Source: an uncultured Methanosarcinales archaeon
Lineage (GTDB): Archaea > Nanobdellota > Nanobdellia > Woesearchaeales > CAZKBD01
Assembly: GCA_964550945.1 (NCBI GenBank)
Contig: CAZKBD010000001.1
Location: 289 to 64,288 of the forward strand
Direction of reading: 5' to 3'
Length of the DNA: 64,000 nucleotides
The notes beneath the pieces are model-generated. The model saw only the letters and a list, made by a program, of their open reading frames with translations. It made no database searches and was not told where the DNA came from. This document shows, piece by piece, positions 29,859-59,533 of the stretch (the stretch's first letter is position 1; every line of letters starts with the position of its first letter). Made by a program: the position numbers and the translations under genes.

Positions 29859-29862
29859 ACAT

Positions 29863-34067: not shown

Positions 34068-34135
34068 TTCTGATTCGAAAGATTTATATACTATTGAATA
34101 CATTTAGTATACAAATGAATTAAAAAAGTATACAG

Positions 34136-40300: not shown

Positions 40301-43300
40301 GAAGTGGTAATATATGGGCAAGAGAGATAGGGGATAGATATTACACAGCAAGAGCAGAAACTTGCGAAGAACTATGCAAACAAAAAGGAGATGTTGCTTA
40401 TAGCTGCGGAAATTCTCAGGCATGCATTGATTTAGGAAGCAATGTTGATGCTGAGAGAAGCAAAGAGAGAGAAACAGCATTTAAAGCACTTGGTACTGTA
40501 AAATCTGTTCCAAAACAGGTTCCAACTAAGGAATTCGAATTTAATGCTAATATGAACTATGGCACAGCGCGCTATGGATATACCTCTGACTGTGTCTTTG
40601 GCAATGAAGGAGCTGATGCAGTAAAAACTGATCCTCAACAAACAGGAACAACATTAAGCGAAACAAAAGAATGCTGTTGCATTGGCAAAGGAACTGCAAG
40701 CCAGACAGGAAAGTATTACCTCTTCAAAGAATCAAGCAGCAGCAAAGCTTGCGCAGAAGGTAAAAGAATAGATTCTGAATTATGCGAGGTCTTCGATGAA
40801 GTTGAACCCGGAACTACTGATTATCCTGCATTTGACTACCGTTATTATCATATAAAATACAAGACAAAAGATGAGAGTAATCAATACAACCCTTATAGGT
40901 ATGTCTCTGGCAGGGATTTGCCAGCTTGTTTTGGATTCAATAGTTTCTTTACATCAGGAAAAAAATTAATGAACAATCCTGCAAAAGACCATTGGGCAGC
41001 ATTCCAATGCTTATGCATAAGCGGCATTTACAATAGGTTGCAGGCAATAAAAAATATCCTTGGCGCTTTGCAGGCCTGCCTTATACAGGTAAGGACAACT
41101 GGAACTGCTGATGCAGGCGTTTGCAAAGAATTATTTTCTCAATGGGTTTGTTCTCTAATCTGGAAAGTGCTTGTTACATTTAAGGATGGCTGCATGCCTT
41201 GGGACAGCTGGGGCAAGGATGACAATGCTCAGATTAGTGATGTGCAAGCATTCATGCAAGGCGGCACCCAAGCTTTAGTTGGCGGTGTTGGCGAGTCATT
41301 AAATGAAATAACTGAGGAATATGGAGGGACAGTTGCCACAAATTTATTAGGTGAAAGTGAAGAAGCTGTTGCAAGAAAAGTATGCTTGGCTGCATTCGGC
41401 TATGATTGGGAGCTTAGCATGGAAGATGTCATTGATGTCGCTTACCAAACGCCTTTTGCAACCTTGGTGCAGCCTGTCTTGCCATTTAGAGAATATCTGA
41501 CATTTGATCCATTCAACGGCTATTCAAGCTATGAATACAGGACTTCATGGCTGATTAATCCTGGCTGTGATTTTGATGATTATGACATCTATTTAAGCTG
41601 CGTCTCAAATAACGAGCTTTATGGAGACGATAAAAGGAAAGGATATAGTGGCGTTGACTGCACTAAGCAAGGTGATCCAGAAGGCAGCAATTGCGATTGC
41701 CTTGGCCTAGATAGAGAACAAGTAAGGAAGTTCTATGATGGAAAAAGATTAAAGCAGAATGTTTTGGAAAACAAGGATTATCACGAAGTTATCCAGGCTC
41801 CATACAGATTTGATCATCTCAAGTTTGTATTAAGGACTAGCAGGAATATTAAAGGTGATATTGCTAAAAATTGCTTCCCAGACGGCCATGATGATGGAAT
41901 ATTCTATTTCCCAATCAAAGACAGGACAGCGCAAGATATTGCTGCCTGCTATGTTGATGCATCTGGCGGAACATTCAAATGCGTCTCAGGAGACGTCTTC
42001 TTTGGCCAGAAAGGCAACTCATACATACAAGGTGTTAAGCTTGTTAATGAAAAAAATGATGTCCAAGCAAATGAAAACCAAGAAACGCAATTCACAAGAG
42101 GCCAACCTTTAGATATAAAGCCAACAGTCTGGAGATCATCAGGCAAAGACCAATGCATGAGGATTGTTTTAGAGTCAGCTTTTGAATCTCGCGTTGATAA
42201 AGTGTTAGCTATTGATGTGGACGGCTTGCATGAATATGGGCCTATCCAGCTAGTTCCTAATCTCGAAATCGCGCGTTCAAGGTTAGGCGTGCCTCAAGGA
42301 GTTACTGCATCCATAGTAACCTCTGAAAATGTAAAGGAAGTCCGTTGGTCAGTCAAGTTTGAAGATGGGGGCAATGATGGAGATTTTATTATAAGCACTA
42401 CATCCCCAGACATGCTTGGAATAGATAATAAACATCAACAATTGACTAAGTGGTTCGAAGAACAAAATAAAGAACAAAATCCAAATGTCTACATACAAGA
42501 TGGGGCTATTTTCATGAAACAAAACGACGAACAAGGTAAACTGGTTACCATCAAGATTACCGGAGTGCAACTTCCAAAATCAACTGAAAAATCAACTGAA
42601 GGAATTGTAAGCAAAGTAGGCGCAATCAGCGATAATATTGTGGTAGCAGCTCCTGGAGATTTCTCTGAATTAAAAACGCTGACAGTAGAATTGTTCCATA
42701 TGAGAGACCTTAGCGAGCAGCAGTATTACAGCAGCTTTGAGGACTGCAACCTGAATGATCCTGTTACCTACCAGAATGATATCCAAAAGAAAGTTTACAA
42801 GATAAGGGTTGTTCCAAAACCTTCTGACACAACTACTGAAGGCAAGATTACTTCTCCTGCGCAAAGGCAGGCTGCAACTGCAGCTCAAGACAAGGAGTTA
42901 GTTACCACACCCACAGTTATCAGGCAACAGCTAATAAACTATTTCAACGAAAAGGTTACTAAAAATCCAACATTGCAAGCGCAAGCTGGGAAATTTTTTG
43001 ATTTAGGAGGAATATATGGAGTTGACCCTGCTTTTGCTGCTGCTGTCGCAATGCTTGAAAGTGCCTATGGTGCAAGTGATATTGCTCTTAACAAATACAA
43101 TTACTTTGGGATAACCGCCGGCGGAGAAGGCGGGGGCTATAAATCATATGGTTCAGCAGAAGAGGGGATAGACGCGTTTTATCGCCTAATAAAAAACGAT
43201 TATATCAACTGTGGACAAGATACAATAAATGAGATTGCAACAGGTACAGGTTATATCAAAAGTGACAACTGTAAATCAGATAACCATGCTTATGTAGGCG

Positions 43301-43368
43301 ATTCAGGAAGAACCAGTTGGCTTACTAACATACCTGCAATCAGAACACAAATTCAAAACCAAAAGTGA
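37315..43368 (+). CDS. Giant secreted protein (2017 aa), module B gene 2: Fn3/Ig-like domains, internal hydrophobic helix, conserved Cys core, C-terminal glucosaminidase (FlgJ-like lysozyme family) domain
   Basis: Signal peptide. Fn3-like blocks (IEWTTDVESDSRVSYGKT..., LVELEWDANNEQDFEQYVIYRN...SAIDRSGNEG). C-terminus AAAVAMLESAYGASDIALNKYNYFGITAGGEGGGYKSYGSAEEGIDAFYRLI matches the glucosaminidase motif (ALESGWG...NNLFGIK). ATGA overlap with the preceding gene. Confidence 0.7.
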   Translation: MREAWIQLTALLIIELMLLLPISFVDALTINSVRVRDFNDKNATIEWTTDVESDSRVSYGKTTALGLLETSYEKLRAHVVKLANLEGNTLYYFSAISSDGTDTITEDNNGNFYSFTTKADITKPFIKVILPRYYTSYEIDIDGEVEPGSKVMLYVNDMSGSARTMDNIETADGKFSFSKVRLQANNKIRIYAKDSAGNENQVDSDITVDINAPILTLDKLPKYAFTRNATLKGSVSEQSLVNVYMTRTSADTNPPAKVNGLKLTDIGSNLVELEWDANNEQDFEQYVIYRNDIGPIATARPSSYTNLVDVKVKTNTEYIYQISAIDRSGNEGEKSDPLVVKTLEGGNPDTIMPRAINLSERVETGLVEKLNVTGAFLINLRFDKGDGIYHIKVESKDSSGNAAFLEDSITLDTKPPKIKISSPRTHTRIYENFADDVTIEGETEPNAKVDLWVQRTPLGYLNKSVEVSGLLNDIEELDESRLRADCRFAVSSGNYCDTGADFSTTADENGYFRVEHVDLTSIFGGAIDITMVPPGDRYVNDYMNRHYNQFGQIAVPVESDVFIMVTEESGQRAAEIANYGIVTCWSGNMTYDIVPINDYQSPTFLSTERIAEGTETIYFLLNFSYRGYGTNAIVNSVSFSKACDDYIRNADQKYNVSCQIMPSGCIAKSNQERTTWYVACHLGAYKDFNRFLKDDWKEFMKSINNEMVFPFQIRLTYTHEIEGKKVSEVQTMCEPVTYVVDNSKINFKEVLPDWLLYDAVNWINDTITTLDKVMEKIYLVLEYVAIGCVASFVIKFVLTVYRRFQCYWDGFQDSVKKLVDTKGDRQASEQACPFGEKKVGIGWEQQQNTLTNAELKLDCDKCAAAWEIEAKLYTTYRWLCDRVFCHSAPAKWTQDTEDLQLEQKALEETKQCGDVEDKSLFGQTLIEAKCSGFKEDYLQQDVINDEGAANKCYRASVKQGSIEERLVFVKTKEQTGSSDKYYKFTVVSAQSQTIGRSGNIWAREIGDRYYTARAETCEELCKQKGDVAYSCGNSQACIDLGSNVDAERSKERETAFKALGTVKSVPKQVPTKEFEFNANMNYGTARYGYTSDCVFGNEGADAVKTDPQQTGTTLSETKECCCIGKGTASQTGKYYLFKESSSSKACAEGKRIDSELCEVFDEVEPGTTDYPAFDYRYYHIKYKTKDESNQYNPYRYVSGRDLPACFGFNSFFTSGKKLMNNPAKDHWAAFQCLCISGIYNRLQAIKNILGALQACLIQVRTTGTADAGVCKELFSQWVCSLIWKVLVTFKDGCMPWDSWGKDDNAQISDVQAFMQGGTQALVGGVGESLNEITEEYGGTVATNLLGESEEAVARKVCLAAFGYDWELSMEDVIDVAYQTPFATLVQPVLPFREYLTFDPFNGYSSYEYRTSWLINPGCDFDDYDIYLSCVSNNELYGDDKRKGYSGVDCTKQGDPEGSNCDCLGLDREQVRKFYDGKRLKQNVLENKDYHEVIQAPYRFDHLKFVLRTSRNIKGDIAKNCFPDGHDDGIFYFPIKDRTAQDIAACYVDASGGTFKCVSGDVFFGQKGNSYIQGVKLVNEKNDVQANENQETQFTRGQPLDIKPTVWRSSGKDQCMRIVLESAFESRVDKVLAIDVDGLHEYGPIQLVPNLEIARSRLGVPQGVTASIVTSENVKEVRWSVKFEDGGNDGDFIISTTSPDMLGIDNKHQQLTKWFEEQNKEQNPNVYIQDGAIFMKQNDEQGKLVTIKITGVQLPKSTEKSTEGIVSKVGAISDNIVVAAPGDFSELKTLTVELFHMRDLSEQQYYSSFEDCNLNDPVTYQNDIQKKVYKIRVVPKPSDTTTEGKITSPAQRQAATAAQDKELVTTPTVIRQQLINYFNEKVTKNPTLQAQAGKFFDLGGIYGVDPAFAAAVAMLESAYGASDIALNKYNYFGITAGGEGGGYKSYGSAEEGIDAFYRLIKNDYINCGQDTINEIATGTGYIKSDNCKSDNHAYVGDSGRTSWLTNIPAIRTQIQNQK

Positions 43369-44365: not shown

Positions 44366-44560
44366 ATGACAGAAGTCACCCTTGAAAAAATTAATGAGAA
44401 CATCCTGGTATTAAAGAAAGAACTAGATTATATTAAAGAAATATTAGAAGAGTCTGAGTTCGAGTTAACAGATGAAGTAAAAGAACAAATAGATGAATCT
44501 AGGAATAGGCCTGTCTCTGAATTCAAAACTCAAAAAGAAATAGAAAAGAATTTCTTATGA
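44366..44560 (+). CDS. Small helical protein, putative antitoxin of the RelE/ParE-like toxin
   Basis: 64 aa, acidic. Stop overlaps the toxin start (ATGA). Confidence 0.4.
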   Translation: MTEVTLEKINENILVLKKELDYIKEILEESEFELTDEVKEQIDESRNRPVSEFKTQKEIEKNFL

Positions 44561-44814
44561 AATACGAGGTTCTTTACGACCCTAAATCAGAAAAGCAACT
44601 AGATAAATTACCTAGGAATACTGCTGTAAGGATAATTAAAAAGATGAGAGAAGTGGGAGACACAGGCAGAGGGATTGAGACATTAAAAGATGAGAACTAC
44701 AAATATAAGGTTAGGGTAGGAAATTATCGAGTTCTAATAGACATAACCAATAATCCAAGTAGGATATGGGTAAGATATGTGGATCACAGGAGCAGGATAT
44801 ATAAGCGGTTTTGA
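44557..44814 (+). CDS. RelE/ParE-family toxin
   Basis: YKYKVRVGNYRVLIDITNNPSRIWVRYVDHRSRIY matches the RelE/ParE core (YKLRVGDYRVIY...HRKD.Y). Confidence 0.65.
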   Translation: MKYEVLYDPKSEKQLDKLPRNTAVRIIKKMREVGDTGRGIETLKDENYKYKVRVGNYRVLIDITNNPSRIWVRYVDHRSRIYKRF

Positions 44815-44866
44815 GATACTTGAGTCTTAATTCGTAAAACTTACGCGCATCACAGAAATCCGACCA

Positions 44867-44896
44867 CTCTGGACTATCGTCCAGAGTTATCTTTTT
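44867..44896 (+). terminator. Hairpin ctctggac-tatcg-tccagag followed by a T-rich run
   Basis: Perfect 8-bp inverted repeat then ttatcttttt, downstream of the RelE gene. Confidence 0.4.
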
Positions 44897-44977
44897 CTTA
44901 GTATATCCTCGTCATTAATCGTTGTCAAGAAAACTTTATAAACACTTCTGCAATAACATAGGCATATTGGGGGAATC

Positions 44978-46867
44978 ATGGATAGCCAATTTTCAGTAGA
45001 TATAGAAACAAATTTCTTAGATATGATTAGTTCCCCATCTGAACTAAAATTATTGAACAGAAAGCAGATAAAGCTGCTAACTAAAGAAGTAAGAAGCAGG
45101 ATAATAAAAACAGTTTCAAAAAATGGCGGCCATTTGGCCTCAAATTTAGGGGTGGTAGAGCTGACAATAGCCTTAAACTATGTGTTCAGCCCTCCAAAAG
45201 ATAGGATCGTATTTGATGTTGGCCATCAAAGCTACACATATAAGCTTCTTACCGGCAGGAGCAAGAATTTTGGCAGTTTAAGGCAGCATAAAGGGATTTC
45301 AGGATTCCCGAAAAGGGAAGAAAGCATTTGCGATTCTTTCAACACAGGCCATGCCTCTACTTCAATCTCAGCTGCCCTTGGGATTGCTAAAGCAAGAGAC
45401 TTAAAAAATGAAAATTATAAGGTAATTGCGGTGGTTGGTGACGGAGCTTTAACAGGCGGAATGTCATTTGAAGCGCTAAACCATGCAGGAGCGTTAAAAA
45501 CAGATTTATTAGTGGTATTGAATGACAATGAGATGTCTATAAGCCCTAATGTCGGAGCCTTATCCAAATATCTCACGAGGATGGTTACTAGCCCAAAATA
45601 CCATGAAATAAGGCAAAAGACAGAGCTATTGCTGAAAAAACTGCCAAAATTCGGAGATATTGCTGCAAAAAAAGCCTTTGAATTAGAAGATTGGATCAGG
45701 GCAATGTCTGCCCAAGGGTTATTTTTCAAAGAAATGGGTTTCCATTATTTCGGGCCTATTGACGGCCATAATCTTGATGAGCTGGTATTAGCATTAAATA
45801 ACATAAAGTCAATAAAAGGCCCTGTTTTGCTCCATGTGATAACAAAAAAAGGCAAGGGCTATAGCCACGCAGAAAACAATAACGCAAAATTCCACGGCGT
45901 AAACCAGTTCAACATCTACAATGGAGAAGACACTAATTGCAGCACTAATATGACGTTTACATCTGCTTTTTCAAAAGCGCTGACAAAACTGGCTGAGCAA
46001 GACAAGAGTATAGTTGCAATAACAGCTGCAATGAAATTAGGAACTGGCCTTGAGGAATTTGCAAAAAACTATCCTAACAGGTTTTTTGATGTTGGCATTG
46101 CTGAGCAGCATGCTGTTACTTTTGCAGCCGGCTTGGCTAGCCAAGGCTTTAAGCCTGTATGTGCAATCTATTCAACATTTTTGCAGCGAAGTTATGACCA
46201 GATTTTACATGACGTTTGCCTGCAGAATCTGAATGTTACTTTTGCAATTGACAGGGCAGGATTAGTTGGAGAAGATGGGCCAACACACCATGGCTCTTTT
46301 GATTTAAGCTTTTTAAGGCACATACCTAATATGGTTATTGCTGCTCCAAAAGATGAAAATGAACTGCAGCATTTATTAAAAACCGCCATTGACTATAATG
46401 GCCCCGCGGCAATCAGGTATCCAAGAGGTTGCGGTATTGGTGCAAAAATGGACAAGACTCCTATGAGATTAAAAATTGGCAAATCAGAGGTTGTAAAGCA
46501 TGGCTCTGATGTTGCAATATTCGCAGTTGGCCACTTAGTTTATGAGGCAATTGAAGCTGCAAAGGAATTAAAGGAAAAAGGCATAAAAGCAATGGTTATA
46601 AACGCAAGATTCATTAAGCCATTAGATGAAAAATTGATTTTATACTTAACAAAAAAGATAAAAAATATAATCACCATAGAAGAAAACTCTTTGCAAGGTG
46701 GGTTTGGCTCTTCATTATTAGAGCTTTTGGAGAAAAATAAGATAAAGGCAAATATAAAAAGGATAGGGCTTCCTGATAAATTCATTGAGCATGGTCCTTT
46801 GGAAATTTTAAGGAAGAATTATGGCTTAACCAAAGAGAATATTGTAAAGGCGGTTGAGGATTTATGA
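44978..46867 (+). CDS. dxs: 1-deoxy-D-xylulose-5-phosphate synthase
   Basis: TPP-binding GDGALTGGMSFEALNHAG. Transketolase-like pyrimidine and C-terminal domains. Length 629 aa. Confidence 0.9.
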   Translation: MDSQFSVDIETNFLDMISSPSELKLLNRKQIKLLTKEVRSRIIKTVSKNGGHLASNLGVVELTIALNYVFSPPKDRIVFDVGHQSYTYKLLTGRSKNFGSLRQHKGISGFPKREESICDSFNTGHASTSISAALGIAKARDLKNENYKVIAVVGDGALTGGMSFEALNHAGALKTDLLVVLNDNEMSISPNVGALSKYLTRMVTSPKYHEIRQKTELLLKKLPKFGDIAAKKAFELEDWIRAMSAQGLFFKEMGFHYFGPIDGHNLDELVLALNNIKSIKGPVLLHVITKKGKGYSHAENNNAKFHGVNQFNIYNGEDTNCSTNMTFTSAFSKALTKLAEQDKSIVAITAAMKLGTGLEEFAKNYPNRFFDVGIAEQHAVTFAAGLASQGFKPVCAIYSTFLQRSYDQILHDVCLQNLNVTFAIDRAGLVGEDGPTHHGSFDLSFLRHIPNMVIAAPKDENELQHLLKTAIDYNGPAAIRYPRGCGIGAKMDKTPMRLKIGKSEVVKHGSDVAIFAVGHLVYEAIEAAKELKEKGIKAMVINARFIKPLDEKLILYLTKKIKNIITIEENSLQGGFGSSLLELLEKNKIKANIKRIGLPDKFIEHGPLEILRKNYGLTKENIVKAVEDL

Positions 46868-47907
46868 GAAATAAATCAACAAAGCGGATAAAAGTTGGAA
46901 ATGCGCTTATAGGAGGCAATGCAGATATTACTGTCCAGTCTATGACAAACACAGATACAAAGAACATCAACGCAACAATAGGCCAGATAAAAAGGCTGGA
47001 AGAAGCTGGTTGCGAGATCATCAGGTTAGCTGTTCCTGATATGGAATCAGTAAGTGCCTTAAAAGAGATTAAAGATAACATTAACATTCCATTGGTTGCT
47101 GACATTCATTTTGATTATAGGTTAGCAGTTGAAGCTGCAAAGTATGTAGACAAGATAAGGATTAATCCAGGCAATATTGGAAATAAGATTCCAGAGGTTG
47201 TTAAAGCTGCAAAAGAACATTCCATCCCGATAAGAGTTGGCATTAACTTAGGCTCTTTAGAAAAAGATATCGAGAAAGAATTCGGCCTTACAGCAAAAGC
47301 AATGGTTGAGTCTGCTTTAAGAAACATCAAAATTTTAGAAGATTTGGATTATTATGATATTGTGGTTTCGTTAAAGGCAAATGATGTTGTAAGGACAATA
47401 GAAGCAAATAAATTATTTTCAAAAATTAGCAACTATCCTCTGCATTTAGGTGTTACAGAATCAGGCTCCAGCTTTTCCGGCACAATAAGCTCAGCAGTAG
47501 GGATTGGAAGCTTGCTTGCAGAAGGCATTGGAGACACAATAAGGGTTTCCTTATCAGCTGATCCTGTTGACGAAGTTAAAGCTGGATGGCAGATATTGAA
47601 GGCACTAAAATTAAGAAAGAGGGGCATTGATATAACAAGCTGCCCAACATGCGCAAGAGCTCATTTTGATGTAATAAAAGTTACAAAAGAATTAGAGGAG
47701 AAAACATCTGGAATAAAAAAACCATTGCATATAGCAATTATGGGCTGTGAAGTCAATGGGCCAGGAGAAGCAAAGGAAGCAGATATTGGTGTTGTGGGGG
47801 GCAAAGGAGAGCATCTTATTTATAAAAAAGGAGCAATAATTAAAAAATTGAAAGAAGATGATATAATCGATTCTGTTATGGAAGAGATTGATAGGGTTAT
47901 TCTTTAG
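46864..47907 (+). CDS. ispG: 4-hydroxy-3-methylbut-2-enyl diphosphate synthase (GcpE)
   Basis: ITSCPTCAR...IAIMGCEVNGPGE Fe-S Cys ligands. ATGA overlap with dxs. Confidence 0.9.
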   Translation: MRNKSTKRIKVGNALIGGNADITVQSMTNTDTKNINATIGQIKRLEEAGCEIIRLAVPDMESVSALKEIKDNINIPLVADIHFDYRLAVEAAKYVDKIRINPGNIGNKIPEVVKAAKEHSIPIRVGINLGSLEKDIEKEFGLTAKAMVESALRNIKILEDLDYYDIVVSLKANDVVRTIEANKLFSKISNYPLHLGVTESGSSFSGTISSAVGIGSLLAEGIGDTIRVSLSADPVDEVKAGWQILKALKLRKRGIDITSCPTCARAHFDVIKVTKELEEKTSGIKKPLHIAIMGCEVNGPGEAKEADIGVVGGKGEHLIYKKGAIIKKLKEDDIIDSVMEEIDRVIL

Positions 47908-47927
47908 ATGTGAGTTGTCAAGAACCG

Positions 47928-48030
47928 CCGCCCTGAAGGGCAGGGTGTGTTCTTGAGCACACTCAGAAACCGCCCTCTTGCCATAAGCTGAAGCAAAGGG
48001 ATTGCGAGTGGCGGTTTCTGATGTTTCAAA
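47928..48030. other. GC-rich structured element (nested inverted repeats) between ispG and a convergent gene
   Basis: gccctgaagggc hairpin. gtgtgttc/gagcacac stem. 12-bp perfect IR tcagaaaccgcc...ggcggtttctga with ~35-nt spacer. GC content far above the local background. Confidence 0.35.
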
Positions 48031-48133
48031 ATGGAGCATTATTAATAATCTAACTCATCACTATTGCTTTTTTCTTTTTATTCAAAGGCTAGGTAACTAA
48101 TGGATCAAATAGTTATGTTAATTCTCTAACAGA

Positions 48134-48715
48134 TTATTTTTCGAATTTAGTCCACAGAATGATTATTAAAATGTATGCAATAAAAATCATTAACGGTTTG
48201 AGATAGCCAGTCAGCTCAAAATTACCTAAGGATAGTTTATCAGCAAACAAATAAGAACACAATAACGCAATAAATGTTATACCCATAATTTTATCAAAAC
48301 TTTTGTTATTATAACTCTTTAATTCAAAAATAGAATAGATGGATACCAACAGAGGGATAAGGCTTCTGTTTAATTGCAATAATGCTGTCGTAAAATCTTT
48401 CCATATTAACGATTGGATTAACGAAATGAATGAGCCCCACATATAGCTAGGATTTGTTGGCACATGCATAGGATTGAACAAAAAGATTAGAGAAGCTGTC
48501 AATGCAAGAACCCAAGCAATTTTTTTCGTTTTATTTGTATTGATAAACAGAAGGGCTATTGAAACCAAATATAAAAATAAGTATAGCAACAAAAATTTTG
48601 CATAGAGAAAAGTTTGAATGCTAAACAAACTTCCGATGACCATATTGAAATTTAGAATAATAACCAAAATTACAAAAATAATAAATGTTTTTTCTTTGAG
48701 ATTAAATCTTGCCAT
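48134..48715 (-). CDS. Polytopic membrane protein of unknown function
   Basis: Five or six hydrophobic helices. ATG start. Confidence 0.45.
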   Translation of the reverse strand: MARFNLKEKTFIIFVILVIILNFNMVIGSLFSIQTFLYAKFLLLYLFLYLVSIALLFINTNKTKKIAWVLALTASLIFLFNPMHVPTNPSYMWGSFISLIQSLIWKDFTTALLQLNRSLIPLLVSIYSIFELKSYNNKSFDKIMGITFIALLCSYLFADKLSLGNFELTGYLKPLMIFIAYILIIILWTKFEK

Positions 48716-48796
48716 TTATATTAAATATAAAATTGAGCATATATAAACATTTTGACCAAAAGGAGGCATACAACAACATATCAATCAATCCAGTAA

Positions 48797-49111
48797 CTAG
48801 CTTACCGTAATCACTTTTTTCTTTTTATTCAACGGCTCAATAACTAATGAGTCAAATAGCTCTACTAATTTTTTAACAAATGGGTTTTCAGTATTTAATT
48901 TGTAAAGCTTGGCATTTCCGATATCCCTGGTGTGGGTTATGATTCCTAAACCTATCAAATCAGCCCATAGCCTAAATAAGGTTGTCCTTCCAATGCCAGC
49001 TCCTTCTGCTATGTCAGAGATAGAATAGTCCAGCTCTCTGCCCTCAATCAGGAACTCTAATACTCTTATTTTTGGTGTGTCTCCAACTGCTTTAGTAAAT
49101 AGCGTTTCCAT
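48797..49111 (-). CDS. Small winged-HTH transcriptional regulator
   Basis: PKIRVLEFLIEGRELDYSISDIAEGAGIGRTTLFRLWADLIGLGII. Paralog of 59162..59533. Confidence 0.6.
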   Translation of the reverse strand: METLFTKAVGDTPKIRVLEFLIEGRELDYSISDIAEGAGIGRTTLFRLWADLIGLGIITHTRDIGNAKLYKLNTENPFVKKLVELFDSLVIEPLNKKKKVITVS

Positions 49112-49216
49112 ACAACTACGTTAAAACGAACCAATATTTAAATGTTTCTATTTTGGAACGTATCAGTTCCATATTTAGAGTTAACTTTTATAAATAAGCG
49201 CCTATTCCATCTGCCT

Positions 49217-49474
49217 ATGGATAAGATATTTATTATGAAAAGATTTTTAAGAAAATTGATTAATCTCGAGATTTGGGGTGGCAGGCATACTGAATTAACT
49301 AATCTAAAGAAATGTATACCAAAACACCTTAGAGGAGAAAAAGTTACTTCAGAAGCTATTAAAGAGCTTGTTGGTGATGGCTTAATCATAGTCAAACAAT
49401 CAACTGGAGAAATTCATGTTGCATTAAATTCACAAAAACAGCATGAGATTTATGAATTTGTAAAAGAAGAATGA
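49217..49474 (+). CDS. Small hypothetical protein, translationally coupled to dxr
   Basis: Internal [17 protein letters not shown].... The stop overlaps the dxr ATG. Function unknown. Confidence 0.35.
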
Positions 49475-50601
49475 AACAACTATCAATCTTAGGCTCAACT
49501 GGAAGCATCGGAACCCAAACACTGGATATTGTTAGAGAAAACCCTAATGATTTCAAGATAGTTGCTTTGACAACAAATAAAAATATCCAACTTTTGAAAA
49601 AGCAGATTGAGGAGTTCAAGCCAGAGCTTGTCTGCGTTTTTGACAAGGAGGCTGCAGATAACCTAAAAATAGAAATTCCGATCCACAAAGGGATGGACGG
49701 TTTGATAAAAGCTGCTACAATTGACAATGCAGACACTATTGTCAATTCTTTAGTCGGCTCAATTGGAGTGATGCCCACTTACAAAGCAATTAAGGCAGAA
49801 AAGGATATTGCTTTAGCAAATAAAGAAACATTGGTCACTGCAGGAAGCATAATAATGGATGAAGTTAAAAAAAATAATGTCAAGCTAATGCCCATTGACT
49901 CAGAGCACAGCGCAATCTTCCAGTGTTTAAACGGTGAAGACATCAAGACAGTTAACAAGATAATAATTACCTGCTCAGGAGGTGCTTTTAGAGACAAAGC
50001 AAACCTAGAAAACCTAAATGCAGCAGACGCACTAAAACACCCAACATGGAATATGGGAGCAAAAATCACAATTGATTCTGCAACTTTGATGAACAAAGGA
50101 TTTGAGGTTATTGAAGCCCATTTCCTCTATAGTATTCCTTATGAAAAGATTGAAGTTATCATCCATCCTCAATCAATAATCCACTCATTAGTTGAATTTA
50201 ATGATCATTCTGTCATGGCTCAGTTAGGATTGCCTGACATGAGGATTCCTATACAGTATGCCCTGGCTTATCCAAGAAGGATAAAGAACCAGCTGAAATC
50301 ACTAAACCTGAAAGAAATAAAATCCCTTGATTTTAAAGAGTATGACGAAAAAAGGTTCCCCTGCCTAAAATACGCTTATGAAGCAGGCAAGATTGGGGGA
50401 ACATTGCCGGCAGTTATGAATGCAGCTAATGAAGTTGCAGTTGCCTCATTCCTCAAAAACAAGATCAGCTTTGTAGATATTCCGATGACAGTTAGAAAAG
50501 CGATGGACGAGCATAAGGTAATCAAGAATCCTGAGCTGGATGAGATTTTGGAAGTTGATAAGGAAGTTAAGGAAAAATGGGAAATGTTTTTAATGTACTA
50601 G
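49471..50601 (+). CDS. dxr: 1-deoxy-D-xylulose-5-phosphate reductoisomerase
   Basis: N-terminal [23 protein letters not shown]-binding motif. Length 376 aa. Confidence 0.9.
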
Positions 50602-50939
50602 CAAGGTTATTAAGAAACCCTCGGAAAAGCGCTCAAAATCAAAGAGATCGCCCAAGAGTGGATGTACGTGAGCTGAATATAGAAGCGATTATTGACACCA
50701 ATTTACAAAGATGCCATATTGGAAAGCTGGTTAATTTGAGCTGTAGTGGTGCATTAGTGCATTATCCAATTGAATTGCATCCAGGAACTGAGTATCCATG
50801 GGCATTATCTGGCCGCAAATATAAAATAACTGGAACTGCAGTATACAGTTGTTTTAATACCAAAGGAGGTTATATGATAGGAGTTCAGTTTAAAGCGCCG
50901 ATCCAGGATGTAAACATAATCAAAGAATACGGCCTATAA
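50577..50939 (+). CDS. PilZ-like small protein
   Basis: [13 protein letters not shown] (RxxxR) ... NLSCSGALV ((D/N)xSxxG) spacing resembles a PilZ c-di-GMP-binding motif. Tentative. Confidence 0.35.
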
Positions 50940-50941
50940 GA

Positions 50942-52093
50942 ATGGCAATAGCAATAATAACCGCAGCAGGAACTGGAAAAAGAATGAATCACACAACCAA
51001 TAAGATACTTCTCTCGCTGGCTGATAAGCCCATAATATACTGGACAATAAAAGCATTTGATGATTGCAAATCAATTAATGACATTGTTGTAGTTGTCAAC
51101 AGAGGAGATAAGATAGAAATCACTAATATAATAAAAAAGTCAAATTTTAAGAAAGTGAGAACCATTGTGGAGGGGGGTGAGAGACGGCAGGAGTCTGTGC
51201 ATAATGGATTAAATGCAATAGACGCAAACGATGATGACATCATTTTGATCCATAATGGAGCAAATCCTTTTGTTTCAGAAAAATTGATTGAAGATGTTAT
51301 CAAGGCAGCAGATGAATTTGGCGCAGCAGGGCCTGCAAATCCAGCGCGAGATACAATAAAGGAAGTGGATAAAGATAATTTTGTAGTGAAAACATTGGAC
51401 AGGAGCAAACTAAGGAACATGCAGACGCCTCAGGCAATAAAATATAGTGTTGCCAAAAAAGCATTTCAGCAGGCAGTTAAAGATGGTTTTTATGGCACAG
51501 ATGACCTGGCTTTGGTTGAAAGGCTGGGAGAAAGGGTTAAGATTGTTAAAAACGAGGCTGAAAATATCAAGATAACCTATCCTCTTGATCTTAAATTTGC
51601 AAACCTTTTGAAAGATTCTATCAGAGTTGGCATTGGCCAGGACTCCCATAAGTTCGCAAATGAGGAAAAGCCATTGATGATGGGCGGGATTAAAATAGAA
51701 AATGAAAGGGGTTTAGAGGCAAACTCTGATGGAGATGTTATCCTTCATGCCATATTTAATGCTATTGCATCTTCAATTGGAGAGCGCTCAATAGGCCATT
51801 ATGCAGACGATATGTGCAAAAAAGGCATTAAAGACAGCAAGGAATACCTTAAATTTATTTTAAACATCTTAAAAGAAAAGGAATATATTATAAACAATAT
51901 CGGAATTGCGTTAGAATGCAAAACCCCCAGTATATCTAATATTGAAGATAAGATAAAAGGATCCTTGTCAAGATTGTTAAGCATAAATGACAACCAGATC
52001 GGGATTACTGCAACATCAGGAGAAGAGTTAACAGAATTCGGGAAAGGGAATGGCATTCAGTGTTTTGTTATAGTGGGCGTTAAGAGGAAATAA
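50942..52093 (+). CDS. ispDF: Bifunctional IspD/IspF (MEP cytidylyltransferase / MEcPP synthase)
   Basis: N-terminal IITAAGTGKRMN (IspD P-loop-like). C-terminal GIGQDSHKF (IspF metal site). 383 aa. Confidence 0.85.
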   Translation: MAIAIITAAGTGKRMNHTTNKILLSLADKPIIYWTIKAFDDCKSINDIVVVVNRGDKIEITNIIKKSNFKKVRTIVEGGERRQESVHNGLNAIDANDDDIILIHNGANPFVSEKLIEDVIKAADEFGAAGPANPARDTIKEVDKDNFVVKTLDRSKLRNMQTPQAIKYSVAKKAFQQAVKDGFYGTDDLALVERLGERVKIVKNEAENIKITYPLDLKFANLLKDSIRVGIGQDSHKFANEEKPLMMGGIKIENERGLEANSDGDVILHAIFNAIASSIGERSIGHYADDMCKKGIKDSKEYLKFILNILKEKEYIINNIGIALECKTPSISNIEDKIKGSLSRLLSINDNQIGITATSGEELTEFGKGNGIQCFVIVGVKRK

Positions 52094-52094
52094 A

Positions 52095-52946
52095 ATGCAA
52101 TTAAAAGCTTATGCAAAAATAAACCTGACATTGGATATTTTAGGAAAGAGAAAAGACGGCTTTCACGAGTTAGAATCCGTTATGCAGCAGGTGGATTTAG
52201 CAGATGATATCTCAATGAAAAGGCTGAATAACAATAAGATCAGCATTGATTGCGAAGGCATTCCTCAAAAAAAGAATCTTGTCTTTAAATCAGCATTCTT
52301 CCTAAAGCGTAATTTTAATGTCAACGCAGGAGTTGAAATAAAAATAAAGAAAAACATTCCGATTGCAGCAGGGCTTGGCGGCGGCTCTACAGATGCTGCT
52401 GCTGTCATAAAAGGATTAAATAGGTTATGGAACCTTAATCTAACTATAGATGAATTGATTGAGTTCGCTGCAAAAACTGGCTCTGATGTCCCATTTTCAA
52501 TTGTTGGAGGAGCTGCTCTTGCAAAAGGCAGGGGCGAGATAATTAAAAAACTGGACAATTTTCCCGCCCTTGACTTAGTGATTATAAACCCTGGTTTTGG
52601 GATAAAGACCATAGACGCTTACAAAGGCCTGGATTCCTCAAATTTTGGCAAGCATAGAAAAACCGCTGTCTTGCTAAAAAAACTGACAAAGGGAAATATA
52701 ACAAAAAACCTTAATAATGATTTTGAAGAGACTATTTTCAAAAAATATCCTAAGATTAAATCTATAAAAGACGACCTTATGAAAAATGGGGCTATGAATG
52801 CCCTGATGTCAGGCTCTGGCTCTAGCGTTTTTGGCATATTCAAAACTAAAACCCAAGCCAAAACTGCTGAAAACAGCCTAAAAGATAAGTATAAATTTGT
52901 ATATGCAACAAAAACAATCACCAATGAAAGTAACAATAGCAAATAA
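52095..52946 (+). CDS. ispE: 4-diphosphocytidyl-2-C-methyl-D-erythritol kinase
   Basis: GHMP kinase motif PIAAGLGGGSTDAAA. Confidence 0.85.
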   Translation: MQLKAYAKINLTLDILGKRKDGFHELESVMQQVDLADDISMKRLNNNKISIDCEGIPQKKNLVFKSAFFLKRNFNVNAGVEIKIKKNIPIAAGLGGGSTDAAAVIKGLNRLWNLNLTIDELIEFAAKTGSDVPFSIVGGAALAKGRGEIIKKLDNFPALDLVIINPGFGIKTIDAYKGLDSSNFGKHRKTAVLLKKLTKGNITKNLNNDFEETIFKKYPKIKSIKDDLMKNGAMNALMSGSGSSVFGIFKTKTQAKTAENSLKDKYKFVYATKTITNESNNSK

Positions 52947-53736
52947 TTCAGGATTTTGTTTTGGAGTTAAGAGGGCATTAGACATAGCCCTAAAACAAAA
53001 AGATTCTTTTAGTTTAGGTCCCTTAATTCACAACCCTCAAACAATTAAAGAACTGGAAAAAAAAGGCATAAAATCAATTGAGTCAATTGATGATATAAAC
53101 AACGGCACTTTGCTTATCAGGACCCATGGCGTTCCAGGAGCATTAATCAAAAAAGCAAAGGAAAAAGGCCTTAATGTAATTGATCTGACATGCCCTTTTG
53201 TAAAAAAAGCCCAGAATCTTGCAAAAGAGTTCTATGCTAAAGGATGTAAGGTCATCATAATAGGGGAAGCTAACCATCCAGAGATTATCGGAATAAGAGG
53301 GAATATAAAAGATGCTGAGGTATTGGAAAGTTTAGAAGATGCAAACAACATTGGTTTTTATGATAAAATTGGTGTAGTTATCCAGACAACACAATCAAAA
53401 GGTAGAGTAGACAAGATTATCAAAAAATTAAGAAGCCATTGCAAGAGATTAAAGATTGCTGAAACAATATGCAATACCACAGCTGAAAGGCAGGATCTGG
53501 CAACAGGCCTTGCAAGAAAAGTCGATCTTATGCTCGTGATTGGTGGAAAAGAATCTGCAAATACAAAAAGGTTGTATGAGTTGTGTAAAAATATAGTAGA
53601 GACCAAGCATGTTGAAATGATATCTGATTTAAAAAAGAGTTGGTTCAAAAATAAGAAGCATATAGGCATTACAGCAGGCGCTTCAACACCAAGATGGCTC
53701 ATAAAAGACATCGCAGAAAAGATAAAGAATGGATAA
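52924..53736 (+). CDS. ispH: 4-hydroxy-3-methylbut-2-enyl diphosphate reductase (LytB)
   Basis: MKVTIANNSGFCFGVKRALD with the first conserved Cys. Start moved to the internal ATG because the ORF track start overlaps ispE by 50 nt. Confidence 0.85.
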   Translation: MKVTIANNSGFCFGVKRALDIALKQKDSFSLGPLIHNPQTIKELEKKGIKSIESIDDINNGTLLIRTHGVPGALIKKAKEKGLNVIDLTCPFVKKAQNLAKEFYAKGCKVIIIGEANHPEIIGIRGNIKDAEVLESLEDANNIGFYDKIGVVIQTTQSKGRVDKIIKKLRSHCKRLKIAETICNTTAERQDLATGLARKVDLMLVIGGKESANTKRLYELCKNIVETKHVEMISDLKKSWFKNKKHIGITAGASTPRWLIKDIAEKIKNG

Positions 53737-54790
53737 TCCATTAGATCATTACAAAAAGATTGTTGATAGTGAATTAGATAATTTTTTTGGTATGGCAGCT
53801 AAAGAGGCTAAGGATGGCTTCTTAAAGACCAATCAAGGTTATATAAGAGAATACATTAAAGATGGGAAGAGGCTTAGGCCTATTTTGTTGATCATGGCAT
53901 ATAAGGCATTCTGTGACAATGATAAGATAATTCCTGCATCTCTATCTGTAGAGCTTCTTCATAACTCAACATTGATTCATGATGACATAATGGATGAGGA
54001 TGATTTCAGGAGAGCCAAGCCAACAGTTTATAAGAGATTAAAAGACAGTTATCTTGCTGATCATAAAGAAGATTCATATGATGGGCCTTTGTTTAATAAA
54101 TCAAGCTCTAAGTTTGCAGTTTCTAATGCCATATTATGCGGAAATATCCTGATCCCATTGGGTGCAGATATGATATCCAATTCTGATTTTCCAGATGAAC
54201 TGAAAAACAATGCGCTAAAAATCTATAATAATGCCTATCGTCTGGTCAATTATGGCCAGTTCCTTGACATACTCTTAGAAAAAAGAAAGGACGTTAAAGA
54301 AAAAGAATATTTAGATATGATTGAAAAGAAGACAGCATGCTTGTTTTCTGCATCTGTTGCTATTGGAGCTGTATTAGCCGATGCTAAGCCTGAAAAGATA
54401 AAACAGCTGGAAGAGTACGCAAAAGAATTGGCAATCGCATTCCAGCTTGTTGACGATATAATGGATATCTCAGAAGACATGGCAAAAGGCCATGAGCTTG
54501 GTTCTGACATAAAAAGAGGCAAAAAGACGCTTCTTGTTATAAAAGCGCTGGAGAATGGGACAGGCAAAGAGAGAAAAGAGCTTCTAAGCATATTAGGAAC
54601 AAGCGCTTCAAAAGAAGAAATAATCAGGGCAATAGGCATAATCAAAAAAAATTCATTGGCTTATGTTAGATCAGAGGCTGATAAACGAGTTATAAAAGCC
54701 AAAGAAATATTAAATAAGATGGGTATAAACAAGGAAAGCAGGGATTTTTTTAATGAGTTTGCGGATTATATGGCCTTAAGGAAGAGATAA
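53729..54790 (+). CDS. Polyprenyl (geranylgeranyl) diphosphate synthase
   Basis: FARM LIHDDIMDEDDFRR and SARM VDDIMDI aspartate-rich motifs. Confidence 0.85.
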   Translation: MDNPLDHYKKIVDSELDNFFGMAAKEAKDGFLKTNQGYIREYIKDGKRLRPILLIMAYKAFCDNDKIIPASLSVELLHNSTLIHDDIMDEDDFRRAKPTVYKRLKDSYLADHKEDSYDGPLFNKSSSKFAVSNAILCGNILIPLGADMISNSDFPDELKNNALKIYNNAYRLVNYGQFLDILLEKRKDVKEKEYLDMIEKKTACLFSASVAIGAVLADAKPEKIKQLEEYAKELAIAFQLVDDIMDISEDMAKGHELGSDIKRGKKTLLVIKALENGTGKERKELLSILGTSASKEEIIRAIGIIKKNSLAYVRSEADKRVIKAKEILNKMGINKESRDFFNEFADYMALRKR

Positions 54791-54806
54791 TCAGAACAAT
54801 AAACAA

Positions 54807-55850
54807 TCAAAAAGAGCCTATATCAATTATCTTCTTTGAAACCCTTTTTTTTCGTAATAGTATCAAACAGAGCTCATGCAGCACTGTAGTGAGGTATCTG
54901 TTTATTCTTAGTTTCTTTAGTATTTTGCCATGCGTTGATTTTATTTTTAGGATTCTATTTATCTTTGGAAAATTATAATCCTTATTTAGATCCTTATTTA
55001 GATTCTTGTTTAATATTCCCTCAGCAACATCCTCTGCAGACGTAATAGCTTGGTATATGCCTTCTCCTGTGAGTTCTGAAGCAAATCCAGCTGCGTCTCC
55101 TACTAAAAACTTATTGCCAAATTTGAAGCCTTGGTAATCAGTATTTACCAAAGCAGCTTCAAATTTTGCTTTTTTATAGCCTATCCCTTTTGACTCTAAA
55201 AATTCTTCAAGATGCTTTTTGACAATCCTTGCATTATTAGCTTGGCTTCCTGTCCCTATAGATGTATAGCCTTTATGGGGGAATATCCACAAATACCAAG
55301 AACCAAAACTTTTATAATCAAGGAATACCTCCACCTTATCAAAACTCTCTTTTACTTTGTAGTGCATTGCCAGGCCCATACCTTTTGTTTTTAACCCTAG
55401 GCTGTTTCTAACAAAGGAATTGCTTCCGTCTGCCCCTATCAGATATTTGAAATTGATTCGTTTGTTGTTGCAGATCAAGTAATCATCCTTTATCTCTTTT
55501 ACTCTTGAATTGAACTGGATTTTAGCTCCTGATTTTTTTACTTCAGCAAGTTGAAGTCTTGCCAGAATTTTCCTGCTTATCATCCAGATAAACGGATGCT
55601 CTTGCCTTATAGTTATGCTCTGAAATCTTGAATGGACAGTTACTGAATTATACCCCTTTTGGATAGCCTTCTCTGGGATAGATTGCCTAGACTTGACAGT
55701 TACGCCTTCTGCACAAACTTTATCTCCCACAGAAGGATTTTTCTCCAGAACCAGAACTCTCTTGAGGTTATTAGCAAGCACTTTAGCAGCAGTTAGACCA
55801 GCAGGGCCTGCCCCTACTATAACCACATCATATTCCATTTCTATAGGCAT
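54807..55850 (-). CDS. Geranylgeranyl reductase-family FAD-dependent oxidoreductase
   Basis: N-terminal VVIVGAGPAGLTAA Rossmann FAD motif. ~350 aa, typical of the archaeal lipid-saturating reductase family. Confidence 0.7.
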   Translation of the reverse strand: MPIEMEYDVVIVGAGPAGLTAAKVLANNLKRVLVLEKNPSVGDKVCAEGVTVKSRQSIPEKAIQKGYNSVTVHSRFQSITIRQEHPFIWMISRKILARLQLAEVKKSGAKIQFNSRVKEIKDDYLICNNKRINFKYLIGADGSNSFVRNSLGLKTKGMGLAMHYKVKESFDKVEVFLDYKSFGSWYLWIFPHKGYTSIGTGSQANNARIVKKHLEEFLESKGIGYKKAKFEAALVNTDYQGFKFGNKFLVGDAAGFASELTGEGIYQAITSAEDVAEGILNKNLNKDLNKDYNFPKINRILKIKSTHGKILKKLRINRYLTTVLHELCLILLRKKRVSKKIIDIGSF

Positions 55851-56251
55851 AGTTTATTTAGTTTTTCCCAGTCCACTTCAGTCTCAACACAGCCGTCTTT
55901 TGATAACAGCAAGCCTTGAGTGATTAAATGAGATTTTAATTTTGATTTTGCAATATTCATCTCGTTTTTGCAGCTTATTCCCACAACTGCTTTGGGTTTG
56001 TGTGTATCTATCAGTTTCTTTACTAAGCTGAAGCCAGGGACGATAAAGACCCTATAGCCAAGATTCTCTGCCTTTTTTTTAAAATCACTTATGTTGCATC
56101 TTCCGCAATTAATGCAGATCCACCCCTCATCAGAATTAGCTGCTTTGCAATCCCTATTCCTCAGGCAGTGCGGCAAAAAGATAGCTCTCTCTTTGTAAGG
56201 CACAGATTTGAACTTTTTTTCATTCGATTTGTTTAGGTTATCCAAATCCAT
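55841..56251 (-). CDS. DUF116-family Cys-rich protein
   Basis: LPHCLRNRDC...CINCGRC pattern. ATG at 56251; the ORF track starts at an upstream TTG. Confidence 0.5.
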   Translation of the reverse strand: MDLDNLNKSNEKKFKSVPYKERAIFLPHCLRNRDCKAANSDEGWICINCGRCNISDFKKKAENLGYRVFIVPGFSLVKKLIDTHKPKAVVGISCKNEMNIAKSKLKSHLITQGLLLSKDGCVETEVDWEKLNKLCL

Positions 56252-56252
56252 C

Positions 56253-56708
56253 TTATCCGACAAAGATATTTACCTTCTCTGGGTCATATTTCCATTCTGA
56301 GCTTAATCTTCCTGATCTCTTGTAGTATTTTATCAATCTTTTTATCTTAGATTCAGTTAGTGTAAGGCCTCTTTTGGCGGTGTTATCCTTCTTGTTTCTT
56401 TCGATATGCTTTTTGACATTGACTGCCTTCTTGATTAAAGCAATAAGGTCTTCTGGGACATCTCCAAGGATGTTTTTCTTCTTTAGTATCGCAGTTATTC
56501 TCTTGCTGGTTATCTTTCTTTCGTCGGGTATGCCATAAGTATCCCTTAAAGTAGTTCCTATCTGCGAAGATGTCTGCCCTTCTTTAGCCAATTTGACTAT
56601 CAATAATTCCACTTCTTTTGATTTATACCTCACCCATGTTGGCAAAGTTGTTTTTAAAGGTTTTTTTGATCCGGATTTTCCTTTTCTTCCTGAGTGCATT
56701 CTAGCCAT
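56253..56708 (-). CDS. rps15: 30S ribosomal protein S15P/S13e (archaeal/eukaryotic type)
   Basis: MARMHSGRKGKSGSKKP...GIPD...RGLTLTESKIKRLIKYYKRSGRL...WKYDP aligns along its length with archaeal S15P. ATG at 56708, three codons downstream of the GTG in the ORF track. Confidence 0.85.
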   Translation of the reverse strand: MARMHSGRKGKSGSKKPLKTTLPTWVRYKSKEVELLIVKLAKEGQTSSQIGTTLRDTYGIPDERKITSKRITAILKKKNILGDVPEDLIALIKKAVNVKKHIERNKKDNTAKRGLTLTESKIKRLIKYYKRSGRLSSEWKYDPEKVNIFVG

Positions 56709-56956
56709 TAATTCCACCCTGTTTAGTTTTTTAGTTGAATAGGGAAATATAAGAATACGCTTATATCTCCAGTATAAACCAGCAGCGCCGTTAAATTCAC
56801 GCAGTGAATTTATGGCATTTCACAACCGATTTATCTCTTGATGCTCGTTAGAAATAGAAGCTGATTTATAAAGGTTACGAAAATCTCTTGGGTTGTTAAA
56901 CTTATATCAAATTGCAAAAATAATGGAACTTTTTTGATGCAATTTGCTATTATATG

Positions 56957-59161: not shown

Positions 59162-59533
59162 ATGAAAGAAAGATCAGTTTTTTTGGAAAGAGAAGGATTT
59201 ACACCTAAAAACAAAGTCCTTGATTTTTTGATTAGTGCCCAGGATTTTGATTATTCAATAAAAGATATTGCTAAATTTTCCAATATTAGCTACCCTTACA
59301 TGAAGCAGTTAAAAAAAGAGCTAGTAAAAGGCAAATGGATTATATTGACAAGAAAGGTTGGCAAAGCGCAGATGTATAAGATTACTCTAAGCAATAAAAA
59401 AGTAGAGAAGTTTATTGATTTTTTCTGGACAGTTGTAAATGAAGAAGTTGACAAGCATCTTGGCATTGAGGAAACTCGTGACTATTCGGCTGCTGGAACT
59501 ATCTCAATGCCTATTTCTGCCAGGCATGGATAA
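59162..59533 (+). CDS. Small winged-HTH transcriptional regulator (paralog of 48797..49111)
   Basis: PKNKVLDFLISAQDFDYSIKDIAKFSNISYPYMKQLKKELVKGKWII. Confidence 0.55.
   Translation: MKERSVFLEREGFTPKNKVLDFLISAQDFDYSIKDIAKFSNISYPYMKQLKKELVKGKWIILTRKVGKAQMYKITLSNKKVEKFIDFFWTVVNEEVDKHLGIEETRDYSAAGTISMPISARHG

Follow-up and report, generated by a model that had tools for sequence, protein, structure and literature searches.

The 64,000-nt stretch of contig CAZKBD010000001.1 analyzed here (the window) carries a cluster of genes for the bacterial-type 2-C-methyl-D-erythritol 4-phosphate (MEP) pathway of isoprenoid precursor biosynthesis, also named after its intermediate 1-deoxy-D-xylulose 5-phosphate (DXP or DOXP). 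A prenyl diphosphate synthase gene follows the cluster directly, and a gene of the geranylgeranyl reductase (GGR) family is convergent with it. Genes were called from an open reading frame (ORF) listing of the window together with profile searches against curated NCBIfam and Pfam models, which matched the gene coordinates of a preliminary description of this DNA almost to the base. The promoter box and genes of the cluster and the convergent gene are as follows.

44928-44942, + strand: promoter box agaaaacTTTATAAA resembling the archaeal TFB recognition element (BRE) and TATA box, a consensus match, with the TATA box 43 nt before the dxs ATG
44978-46867, + strand: dxs, DXP synthase, 629 aa (TIGR00204, 862 bits, cut-off 466)
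46864-47907, + strand: ispG (gcpE), 4-hydroxy-3-methylbut-2-enyl diphosphate (HMBPP) synthase, 347 aa (NF001540, 471 bits, cut-off 345)
49471-50601, + strand: dxr, DXP reductoisomerase, 376 aa (NF009114, 562 bits, cut-off 461)
50942-52093, + strand: ispDF, fused MEP cytidylyltransferase and 2-C-methyl-D-erythritol 2,4-cyclodiphosphate (MEcPP) synthase, 383 aa (TIGR00453 and TIGR00151)
52095-52946, + strand: ispE, 4-diphosphocytidyl-2-C-methyl-D-erythritol (CDP-ME) kinase, 283 aa (TIGR00154, 251.8 bits, cut-off 138.7)
52924-53736, + strand: ispH (lytB), HMBPP reductase (TIGR00216, 271.6 bits, cut-off 187.9)
53729-54790, + strand: short-chain trans-prenyl diphosphate synthase of the archaeal IdsA/geranylgeranyl diphosphate synthase (GGPPS) type, 353 aa (PF00348 polyprenyl_synt, 199.7 bits)
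54807-55850, - strand: GGR-family flavoprotein, 347 aa (TIGR02032, 153.7 bits, cut-off 158.8)

The preliminary description had read all seven MEP activities into this DNA, and the profile scores confirm a complete predicted bacterial-type pathway: each activity exceeds its curated equivalog cut-off, including the two domains of the fusion protein (IspD, 220.7 bits against a cut-off of 181.3; IspF, 148.2 bits against 116.5). The [4Fe-4S] ligands of IspG (CPTC...GC...E, three cysteines and a glutamate) are conserved in an alignment with the Aquifex aeolicus structure 3NOY, as are the three Fe-S cysteines of IspH in an alignment with A. aeolicus 3DNF, and the N terminus of Dxr carries the NADPH-binding motif GSTGSIG; because these residues are intact, the MEP enzymes look functional, as judged from their sequences. 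No ferredoxin or flavodoxin gene, which could supply a donor for IspG and IspH, was found in the cluster. Comparison with the orthologue on a related contig, L003, places the likely start of ispH at the ATG at 52924 (MKVTIAN) rather than at the TTG at 52897 of the mechanically listed ORF. A GGGGG run resembling a Shine-Dalgarno sequence lies at -11 to -7 of dxs. ATGA overlaps had been described for both dxs/ispG and dxr: the first indeed joins the dxs 3' end to the ispG start, whereas the partner of dxr in the second is a small upstream ORF and no MEP gene.

Beyond the GGR-family gene lie two further genes on the same strand that bear on the identity of the contig.

55841-56251, - strand: DUF116 protein (PF01976, 138 bits), overlapping the start of the GGR-family gene by 10 nt
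56253-56708, - strand: ribosomal protein S15P of the archaeal/eukaryotic S13e type, 151 aa (NF006331, 203 bits, cut-off 154)

S15P combines the domains Ribosomal_S13_N and S15 (PF08069 and PF00312), as do all of its homologues, and every named homologue among the best 120 is labeled Candidatus Woesearchaeota or Nanoarchaeota archaeon. Similarly, Dxs homologues of 61-86% identity that bear an organism name are, among the best 120, all from Woesearchaeota or Nanoarchaeota, and the first bacterial label among the matches listed, a Bacillota sequence (P0075), appears at 60% identity. Promoter-like sequences, called as consensus matches, point the same way. The window holds 45 TTTAWAWA boxes on both strands, 11 of them at -37 to -30 from a start codon against a chance expectation of 0.16 (P about 4e-17). 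Boxes before starts lie mostly at exactly -31 or -32, often with AAGA or AAAG just upstream; examples stand 5' of the genes at 11977-12186 (-), 12364-12606 (-), 14353-15192 (-), 19775-20893 (-), 48134-48715 (-), 59162-59533 (+), and 60001-60270 (-). Such spacing is compatible with leaderless transcription being widespread. A scan for sigma-70-like promoters and for intrinsic terminators gave counts equal to the shuffled expectation (sigma-70-like sites, 42 against 44.7 expected), which is informative only as a negative for bacterial-type promoters.

We considered whether the contig might be bacterial, for example from the candidate phyla radiation (CPR; Patescibacteria), with the archaeal-looking genes being the transferred ones. 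The bacterial-type MEP genes would fit such a host, as would other genes of the window, which encode a glucosaminidase domain, a PilZ domain, and a homologue of Lgt; however, DPANN genomes are known to carry bacterial-type genes of exactly this kind (PMC8204110). S15P of the S13e type belongs to the core ribosomal proteins of archaea and eukaryotes, with named best matches here exclusively woesearchaeal or nanoarchaeal, TATA boxes at about -31 are strongly enriched and sigma-70-like sites are not, and on related contigs dxs is neighbored by a Cdc6/Orc1-type gene (L009) or an aIF5B-type gene (L002). A bacterial host is thus very improbable, and we reject it on the type of S15P, the TATA enrichment, and the archaeal neighbors in related contigs. 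By these markers the contig is assigned to the Woesearchaeota (DPANN; Nanoarchaeota in GTDB naming), in agreement with the archaeal origin proposed for it at the outset.

Bacterial enzymes beside an archaeal ribosomal protein gene could also result from misassembly, with an MEP fragment of bacterial origin fused to an archaeal fragment that carries S15P. The bacterial type of the MEP enzymes, with Bacillota as the nearest non-archaeal relatives, is what such a chimera would show, and the candidate junction between the convergent genes is merely 16 nt long. Independent assemblies of the same groundwater metagenome community nevertheless reproduce the arrangement. L007 (ENA, 99.9% identical) covers 54703-56930 and so crosses the junction from the 3' end of the prenyl synthase gene through the spacer to the GGR-family, DUF116, and S15P genes, and L001 (JGI, 99.7% identical) covers 44593-48078, that is, dxs-ispG. 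In the divergent metagenome-assembled genome (MAG) L008, this MEP cluster likewise converges on DUF116-S15P, many members of the Dxs clade are labeled archaeal MAGs with some contigs of 30-200 kb, and archaeal TATA boxes occur both flanking and inside the cluster. GC continuity had been proposed as a check, and GC content is flat across the window, the MEP genes being equal to the rest; for each MEP gene, codon usage agrees with that of the remaining window at r = 0.84-0.89, as well as it does for the methionyl-tRNA synthetase (MetRS) or the giant surface protein genes. With the junction spanned by L007 and the synteny in L008 and L003, a chimeric assembly is effectively refuted, and we give it next to no chance. 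Both possibilities that could have overturned the initial observation, a bacterial placement of the markers and a chimeric assembly, were thus examined, and neither refuted it. The uniform codon usage indicates that the MEP cluster is probably an old, ameliorated acquisition.

Related contigs show how the cluster is organized in its lineage. The closest relative, L003 (Dxs 86% identical), has a single unbroken operon, dxs-ispG-dxr-PilZ-ispDF-ispE-ispH, in which ispG and dxr overlap; the 1.56-kb stretch that separates these two genes in the window, at 47908-49470, is absent there and is a lineage-specific insertion with genes on the opposite strand. The ORFs in or at the end of the insertion are the following.

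48134-48715, - strand: membrane ORF, 193 aa
48797-49111, - strand: helix-turn-helix (HTH) protein, IclR-like
49217-49474, + strand (probable span): small ORF with a TATA box at -30 and the ATGA overlap with dxr

The 3' end of the HTH ORF is partly duplicated at about 48060-48135. The more distant L008 (GCA_053534035.1; Dxs 66% and S15P 68% identical) has dxs, ispG, dxr, ispDF, ispE, ispH, and the prenyl synthase gene, followed by a methyltransferase gene and then by DUF116-S15P convergent to the cluster. L009, a Logan contig of the same lineage as L008, carries its Cdc6/Orc1-type gene upstream of dxs, and in L002, a named Woesearchaeota MAG, dxs-ispG and dxr lie a few kb from the aIF5B-type IF-2 gene. 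The S15P-DUF116 pair is kept in L007, L008, L010, and L011. Immediately 5' of dxs, the window has a ParE-type toxin gene with a small upstream ORF (44366-44814, +); L008 and L009 carry a ribbon-helix-helix (RHH)-PIN pair at this place.

To place the MEP genes among their homologues, a Dxs tree was built from the best 120 matches and three Endomicrobia outgroup sequences (the only loci, at 53-54% Dxs identity, that a back-translated-pattern scan with overly specific patterns returned). In this rough neighbor-joining tree, which carries no support values, one clade of 110 sequences holds all 15 archaeon-labeled sequences together with the window, L003, and L008, and three Bacillota-labeled sequences fall immediately outside it. 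The Bacillota enzymes are orthologous, with Dxs 58-60% identical to that of the window. The genomic settings differ: in the nearest labeled Bacillota (L013 and L014), dxs sits in the standard arrangement xseA-xseB-ispA-dxs-tlyA-nadK-argR-recN, away from any other MEP gene, whereas the window has all seven activities in one cluster behind archaeal-type promoters. Because the Bacillota dxs stands apart from other MEP genes, the archaeal cluster is not simply a copied Bacillota operon; it may have been assembled in the archaeal lineage or may derive from an unsampled donor. Consistent with this, bacterial neighbors differ from one MEP gene to another in published trees (PMC8421398, PMC6107057). 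The placement of Dxs had been proposed as a means of identifying the donor, and it does put the archaeal clade next to Bacillota, but the tree does not identify a single donor lineage.

Taken together, the window is very probably a woesearchaeal fragment in which a bacterial MEP/DOXP pathway, acquired by ancient horizontal transfer, has been consolidated into one cluster. Dxs would condense pyruvate and glyceraldehyde-3-phosphate to DXP, which Dxr, IspD, IspE, and IspF would convert to MEcPP, and the Fe-S enzymes IspG and IspH would reduce MEcPP to isopentenyl diphosphate (IPP) and dimethylallyl diphosphate (DMAPP). The archaeal-type trans-prenyl diphosphate synthase, presumably cotranscribed, would then elongate IPP and DMAPP units, and the convergent GGR-family flavoprotein may saturate the resulting prenyl chains. 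Archaeal BRE/TATA promoters would drive the cluster, and the host-like codon usage would mark it as long resident and ameliorated. Following published genome surveys, the MEP pathway probably replaces the mevalonate route; no mevalonate-pathway enzyme was matched among the roughly 57 ORFs of the window. Candidate uses of the products would be membrane ether lipids, polyprenyl or dolichyl carriers, and other isoprenoids.

Several points weigh against this explanation or parts of it. Rfam and tRNA scans found no rRNA or tRNA in the window, so it offers no RNA anchor for taxonomy, and the genome-wide absence of the mevalonate pathway is taken from PMC8421398. The Dxs tree is of the rough kind described, and the donors or neighbors named in the literature are, depending on the gene, Firmicutes, CPR (Nealsonbacteria), or the Fibrobacteres-Chlorobi-Bacteroidetes group (FCB), which leaves the donor ambiguous (PMC8421398, PMC6107057). 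Downstream of IPP and DMAPP, the prenyl synthase stays below the NCBIfam equivalog cut-offs (GGPP_syn, 218 against 500 bits; IdsA, 204 against 468 bits), and the GGR-family protein misses the TIGR02032 cut-off marginally. The window contains no gene for glycerol-1-phosphate (G1P) dehydrogenase, geranylgeranylglyceryl phosphate synthase (GGGPS), digeranylgeranylglyceryl phosphate synthase (DGGGPS; a UbiA-family enzyme), or CarS, and GGGPS and DGGGPS are reported missing from MEP-bearing Woesearchaeota (Huang et al. 2021, PMC8421398).

The prenyl synthase itself has features that touch on the use of its product. Its gene overlaps ispH by 8 nt, both aspartate-rich motifs are present (DDIMD twice), and the best matches among solved structures are the archaeal GGPPS 5JFQ from Geoglobus acetivorans and 1WY0 from Pyrococcus horikoshii (E = 3e-40 and 1e-38). 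In archaeal GGPPS the position five residues ahead of the first DDxxD motif limits chain length, and mutagenesis indicates that Ser in place of Phe or Tyr there permits chains longer than C20. This residue, ahead of the first aspartate-rich motif (FARM; LLHNSTLIHDDIMD), is Ser in the window protein, where archaeal GGPPS structures have Phe or Tyr (Phe in 5JFQ, Tyr in 1WY0). A 26-residue insertion follows residue 102 (region of residues 76-127), and both the Ser and the insertion are kept in L003 and L008. Because a conserved Ser replaces Phe/Tyr at the chain-length position, the product may exceed C20. The gene directly behind ispH had been called a GGPP synthase: a trans-prenyl synthase does lie there, but its equivalog scores fall short of those for GGPPS and the aromatic residue is missing.

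The GGR-family gene had been described as convergent with the cluster, and so it is, with a 16-nt spacer to the prenyl synthase gene. It closes a unit, S15P-DUF116-GGR, whose reading frames overlap and which points toward the cluster. The motifs GAGPAG, VCAEG, YLWIFP, and VGDAAG align with Thermoplasma acidophilum digeranylgeranylglycerophospholipid (DGGGPL) reductase 3OZ2, the best but distant solved structure (E = 7e-13, 51.8 bits). With 3OZ2 and TIGR02032 the protein thus shares the FAD-binding GxGxxG motif, the Cys of VCAEG, YxWxFP, and GDAAG, and it is 50-100 residues shorter than they are at the C terminus.

These features bear on what the pathway is for. The preliminary description had envisaged a chimera in which the MEP pathway feeds ether-lipid synthesis; the presence of the pathway in an archaeon holds, but the link to ether lipids is unproven, with GGGPS and DGGGPS reported absent (PMC8421398). 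It is quite possible, if somewhat short of probable, that the MEP-derived prenyl diphosphates feed other isoprenoids rather than self-made diether or tetraether membrane lipids, the membrane lipids being scavenged from a host. The sinks would then be prenylated cofactors, products of greater chain length, or glycan carriers of the polyprenyl or dolichyl phosphate type, which the GGR paralogue would saturate. Such use is favored by the reported lack of GGGPS and DGGGPS and the want of any ether-lipid assembly gene in the window, by the Ser that stands in place of Phe/Tyr in three lineages, and by a GGR homologue that is short (347 aa) and remote from DGGGPL reductases. Against it, Castelle et al. 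(2021, PMC8204110) found that some of these genomes encode UbiA prenyltransferases close to the MEP genes. Archaea direct their isoprenoids mainly to membrane lipids, so that maintaining nine genes for a minor product seems costly, and the failure to call a gene in an incomplete MAG says little about its absence.

Between dxr and ispDF the cluster contains a further gene that recurs on other contigs.

50577-50939, + strand: PilZ-domain ORF, 120 aa (Pfam PilZ, PF07238, 22.0 bits, cut-off 22.5)
L003, 5264-5626: orthologue
L015, 1394-1771: family member
L017, 277-639: family member

Its 25-nt overlap with the 3' end of dxr hints at translational coupling between the two genes. Wherever neighbors were called (the window, L003, and L015), the gene sits at the dxr/ispDF junction with this overlap, and on the short contigs L016-L018 it overlaps an unannotated upstream gene by the same 25 nt. 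Although the window protein scores just below the PilZ cut-off, all five family members match Pfam PilZ alone (best E = 2.6e-9), and the motifs R23xxxR27 and N53xS55xxG58 are invariant in the family down to 37% identity. The family is small: besides the L003 orthologue, an exhaustive HMMER search over 1.84 billion cluster representatives returned three credible relatives only (P0259-P0261), a plain homologue search with the protein found two clusters only, and a metagenome scan with the family alignment gave no match. The gene is absent from the MEP-bearing relatives L008 and L002. An AlphaFold model from a two-sequence alignment reached a predicted local distance difference test (pLDDT) score of 58.5 and gave no meaningful Foldseek match, and a profile search of the protein against PDB sequences returned nothing.

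In its single-domain size and its RxxxR and (D/N)xSxxG motifs the protein resembles bacterial stand-alone PilZ receptors for cyclic di-GMP (c-di-GMP; PF07238); unlike them it belongs to an archaeal host and, wherever neighbors were called, was found only inside an MEP operon. Archaea are generally regarded as lacking, or nearly lacking, c-di-GMP signaling (PMC8646023), and no GGDEF or EAL domain is encoded in the window. It is conceivable, though rather unlikely, that a subclade of MEP-bearing Woesearchaeota inserted a dedicated PilZ protein that puts isoprenoid precursor synthesis under second-messenger control. Binding of c-di-GMP or a similar nucleotide, if it occurs, would make the protein a functional archaeal c-di-GMP effector and a new kind of MEP regulator; we record the ORF as a side observation that is possibly new.

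The insertion between ispG and dxr also contains, 6 nt past the ispG stop, a structured repeat element of about 115 nt composed of two hairpins, TGTCAAGAAC...GCTGAAGC...GTTCTTGAGCAYRCTCAGAAACCGCC...GCTGAAGC...GGCGGTTTCTGAYRTTTCAA, of which the window has a second copy.

47914-48033, + strand: two-hairpin element (covariance model R1, 135 bits)
35290-35406, + strand: second, AT-rich copy (covariance model, 44 bits, E = 8e-8)
Outside the window: copies on L020, L021, L022, L023, L025, L026, L027, L028, L030, and L031

The copy behind ispG folds with a minimum free energy of -53.4 kcal/mol (z = -4.76), and an Rfam search with the element gave no match. A pattern scan of JGI metagenomes found the ten related copies outside the window. 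The element is multi-copy, with three identical copies in different flanks in one sample and two on one 936-kb contig. Across nine copies, 8 of the 31 consensus pairs show compensatory changes. Nine of 12 copies neighbor the 3' end of a gene, no more than 43 nt from the stop of an ORF of 178 aa or longer; seven of these nine are preceded by a gene on their own strand. At its ends the element has imperfect inverted repeats. It may represent a family of miniature inverted-repeat transposable elements (MITEs) or an undescribed DPANN noncoding RNA or 3'-end RNA structure, and it is a second side observation that is possibly new.

Elsewhere in the window, the gene at 37315-43368 (+) follows a 633-aa ORF, with an overlap of the ATGA type, and encodes a 2017-aa protein. 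This protein carries a mannosyl-glycoprotein endo-beta-N-acetylglucosaminidase domain at its C-terminal end (residues 1899-1964) and resembles the giant murein-degrading surface proteins reported for Woesearchaeota and Pacearchaeota with small genomes (PMC8204110). The gene for Lgt, a prolipoprotein diacylglyceryl transferase of bacterial type (14353-15192, -; PF01790, 98 bits), is preceded by an archaeal TATA box at -31. Convergent with it is a gene for a B12-binding radical SAM protein (12734-14263, +); its matches to BchE/HpnJ/HpnR-type families are below the cut-offs, and with BchE/HpnJ-type matches sub-threshold we make no claim for it as a lipid-modifying enzyme. Four direct repeats of about 100 nt (28101-28200, 29191-29290, 30432-30531, and 31239-31338) all code for one N-terminal signal/transmembrane segment of pilin-like appearance, MK..QSLSSGILF..AIFTFAMFESG. 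The last repeat alone runs into a full 941-aa protein, and the other three are short cassettes among DUF1016 nuclease and nucleotidyltransferase/HEPN genes. The region 27179-35246 has three nucleotidyltransferase (MNT-like) genes, one of them followed by a HEPN gene.

The archaeal MEP chimera has been known since 2018. Castelle and Banfield (2018), as cited in PMC8421398, described the MEP pathway in Woesearchaeota; Hoshino and Gaucher (2018; PMC6107057) and a 2024 survey of oxygen-deficient zones (PMC10936187) report the same feature; Castelle et al. (2021; PMC8204110) report woesearchaeal MEP clusters; and Huang et al. (2021; PMC8421398) found the pathway in subgroups F and J, with a fused ispD/F and bacterial origins. 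With the published clusters the window shares complete, co-located MEP genes of bacterial type, the ispD/ispF fusion, and a DPANN host from groundwater or sediment, and in both the nearest bacterial relatives include Firmicutes. The PilZ-like ORF, the 1.56-kb insertion, and the convergence with GGR-DUF116-S15P were not found in the Woesearchaeota MEP papers PMC8421398 and PMC8204110. The locus is therefore another member of a known group with nothing essential different, and it adds a well-resolved and well-verified example, not a discovery. It could help to test how isoprenoids are used in these archaea, what chain length the Ser-variant synthase produces, and whether the PilZ-like protein acts as a regulator. 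An MEP pathway in an archaeon crosses the classic divide between Bacteria and Archaea, MEP against mevalonate, in making the precursors of the lipids that define archaeal membranes. It illustrates that an entire pathway can be exchanged between domains, and it bears on the debate over the autonomy of larger-genome DPANN archaea.

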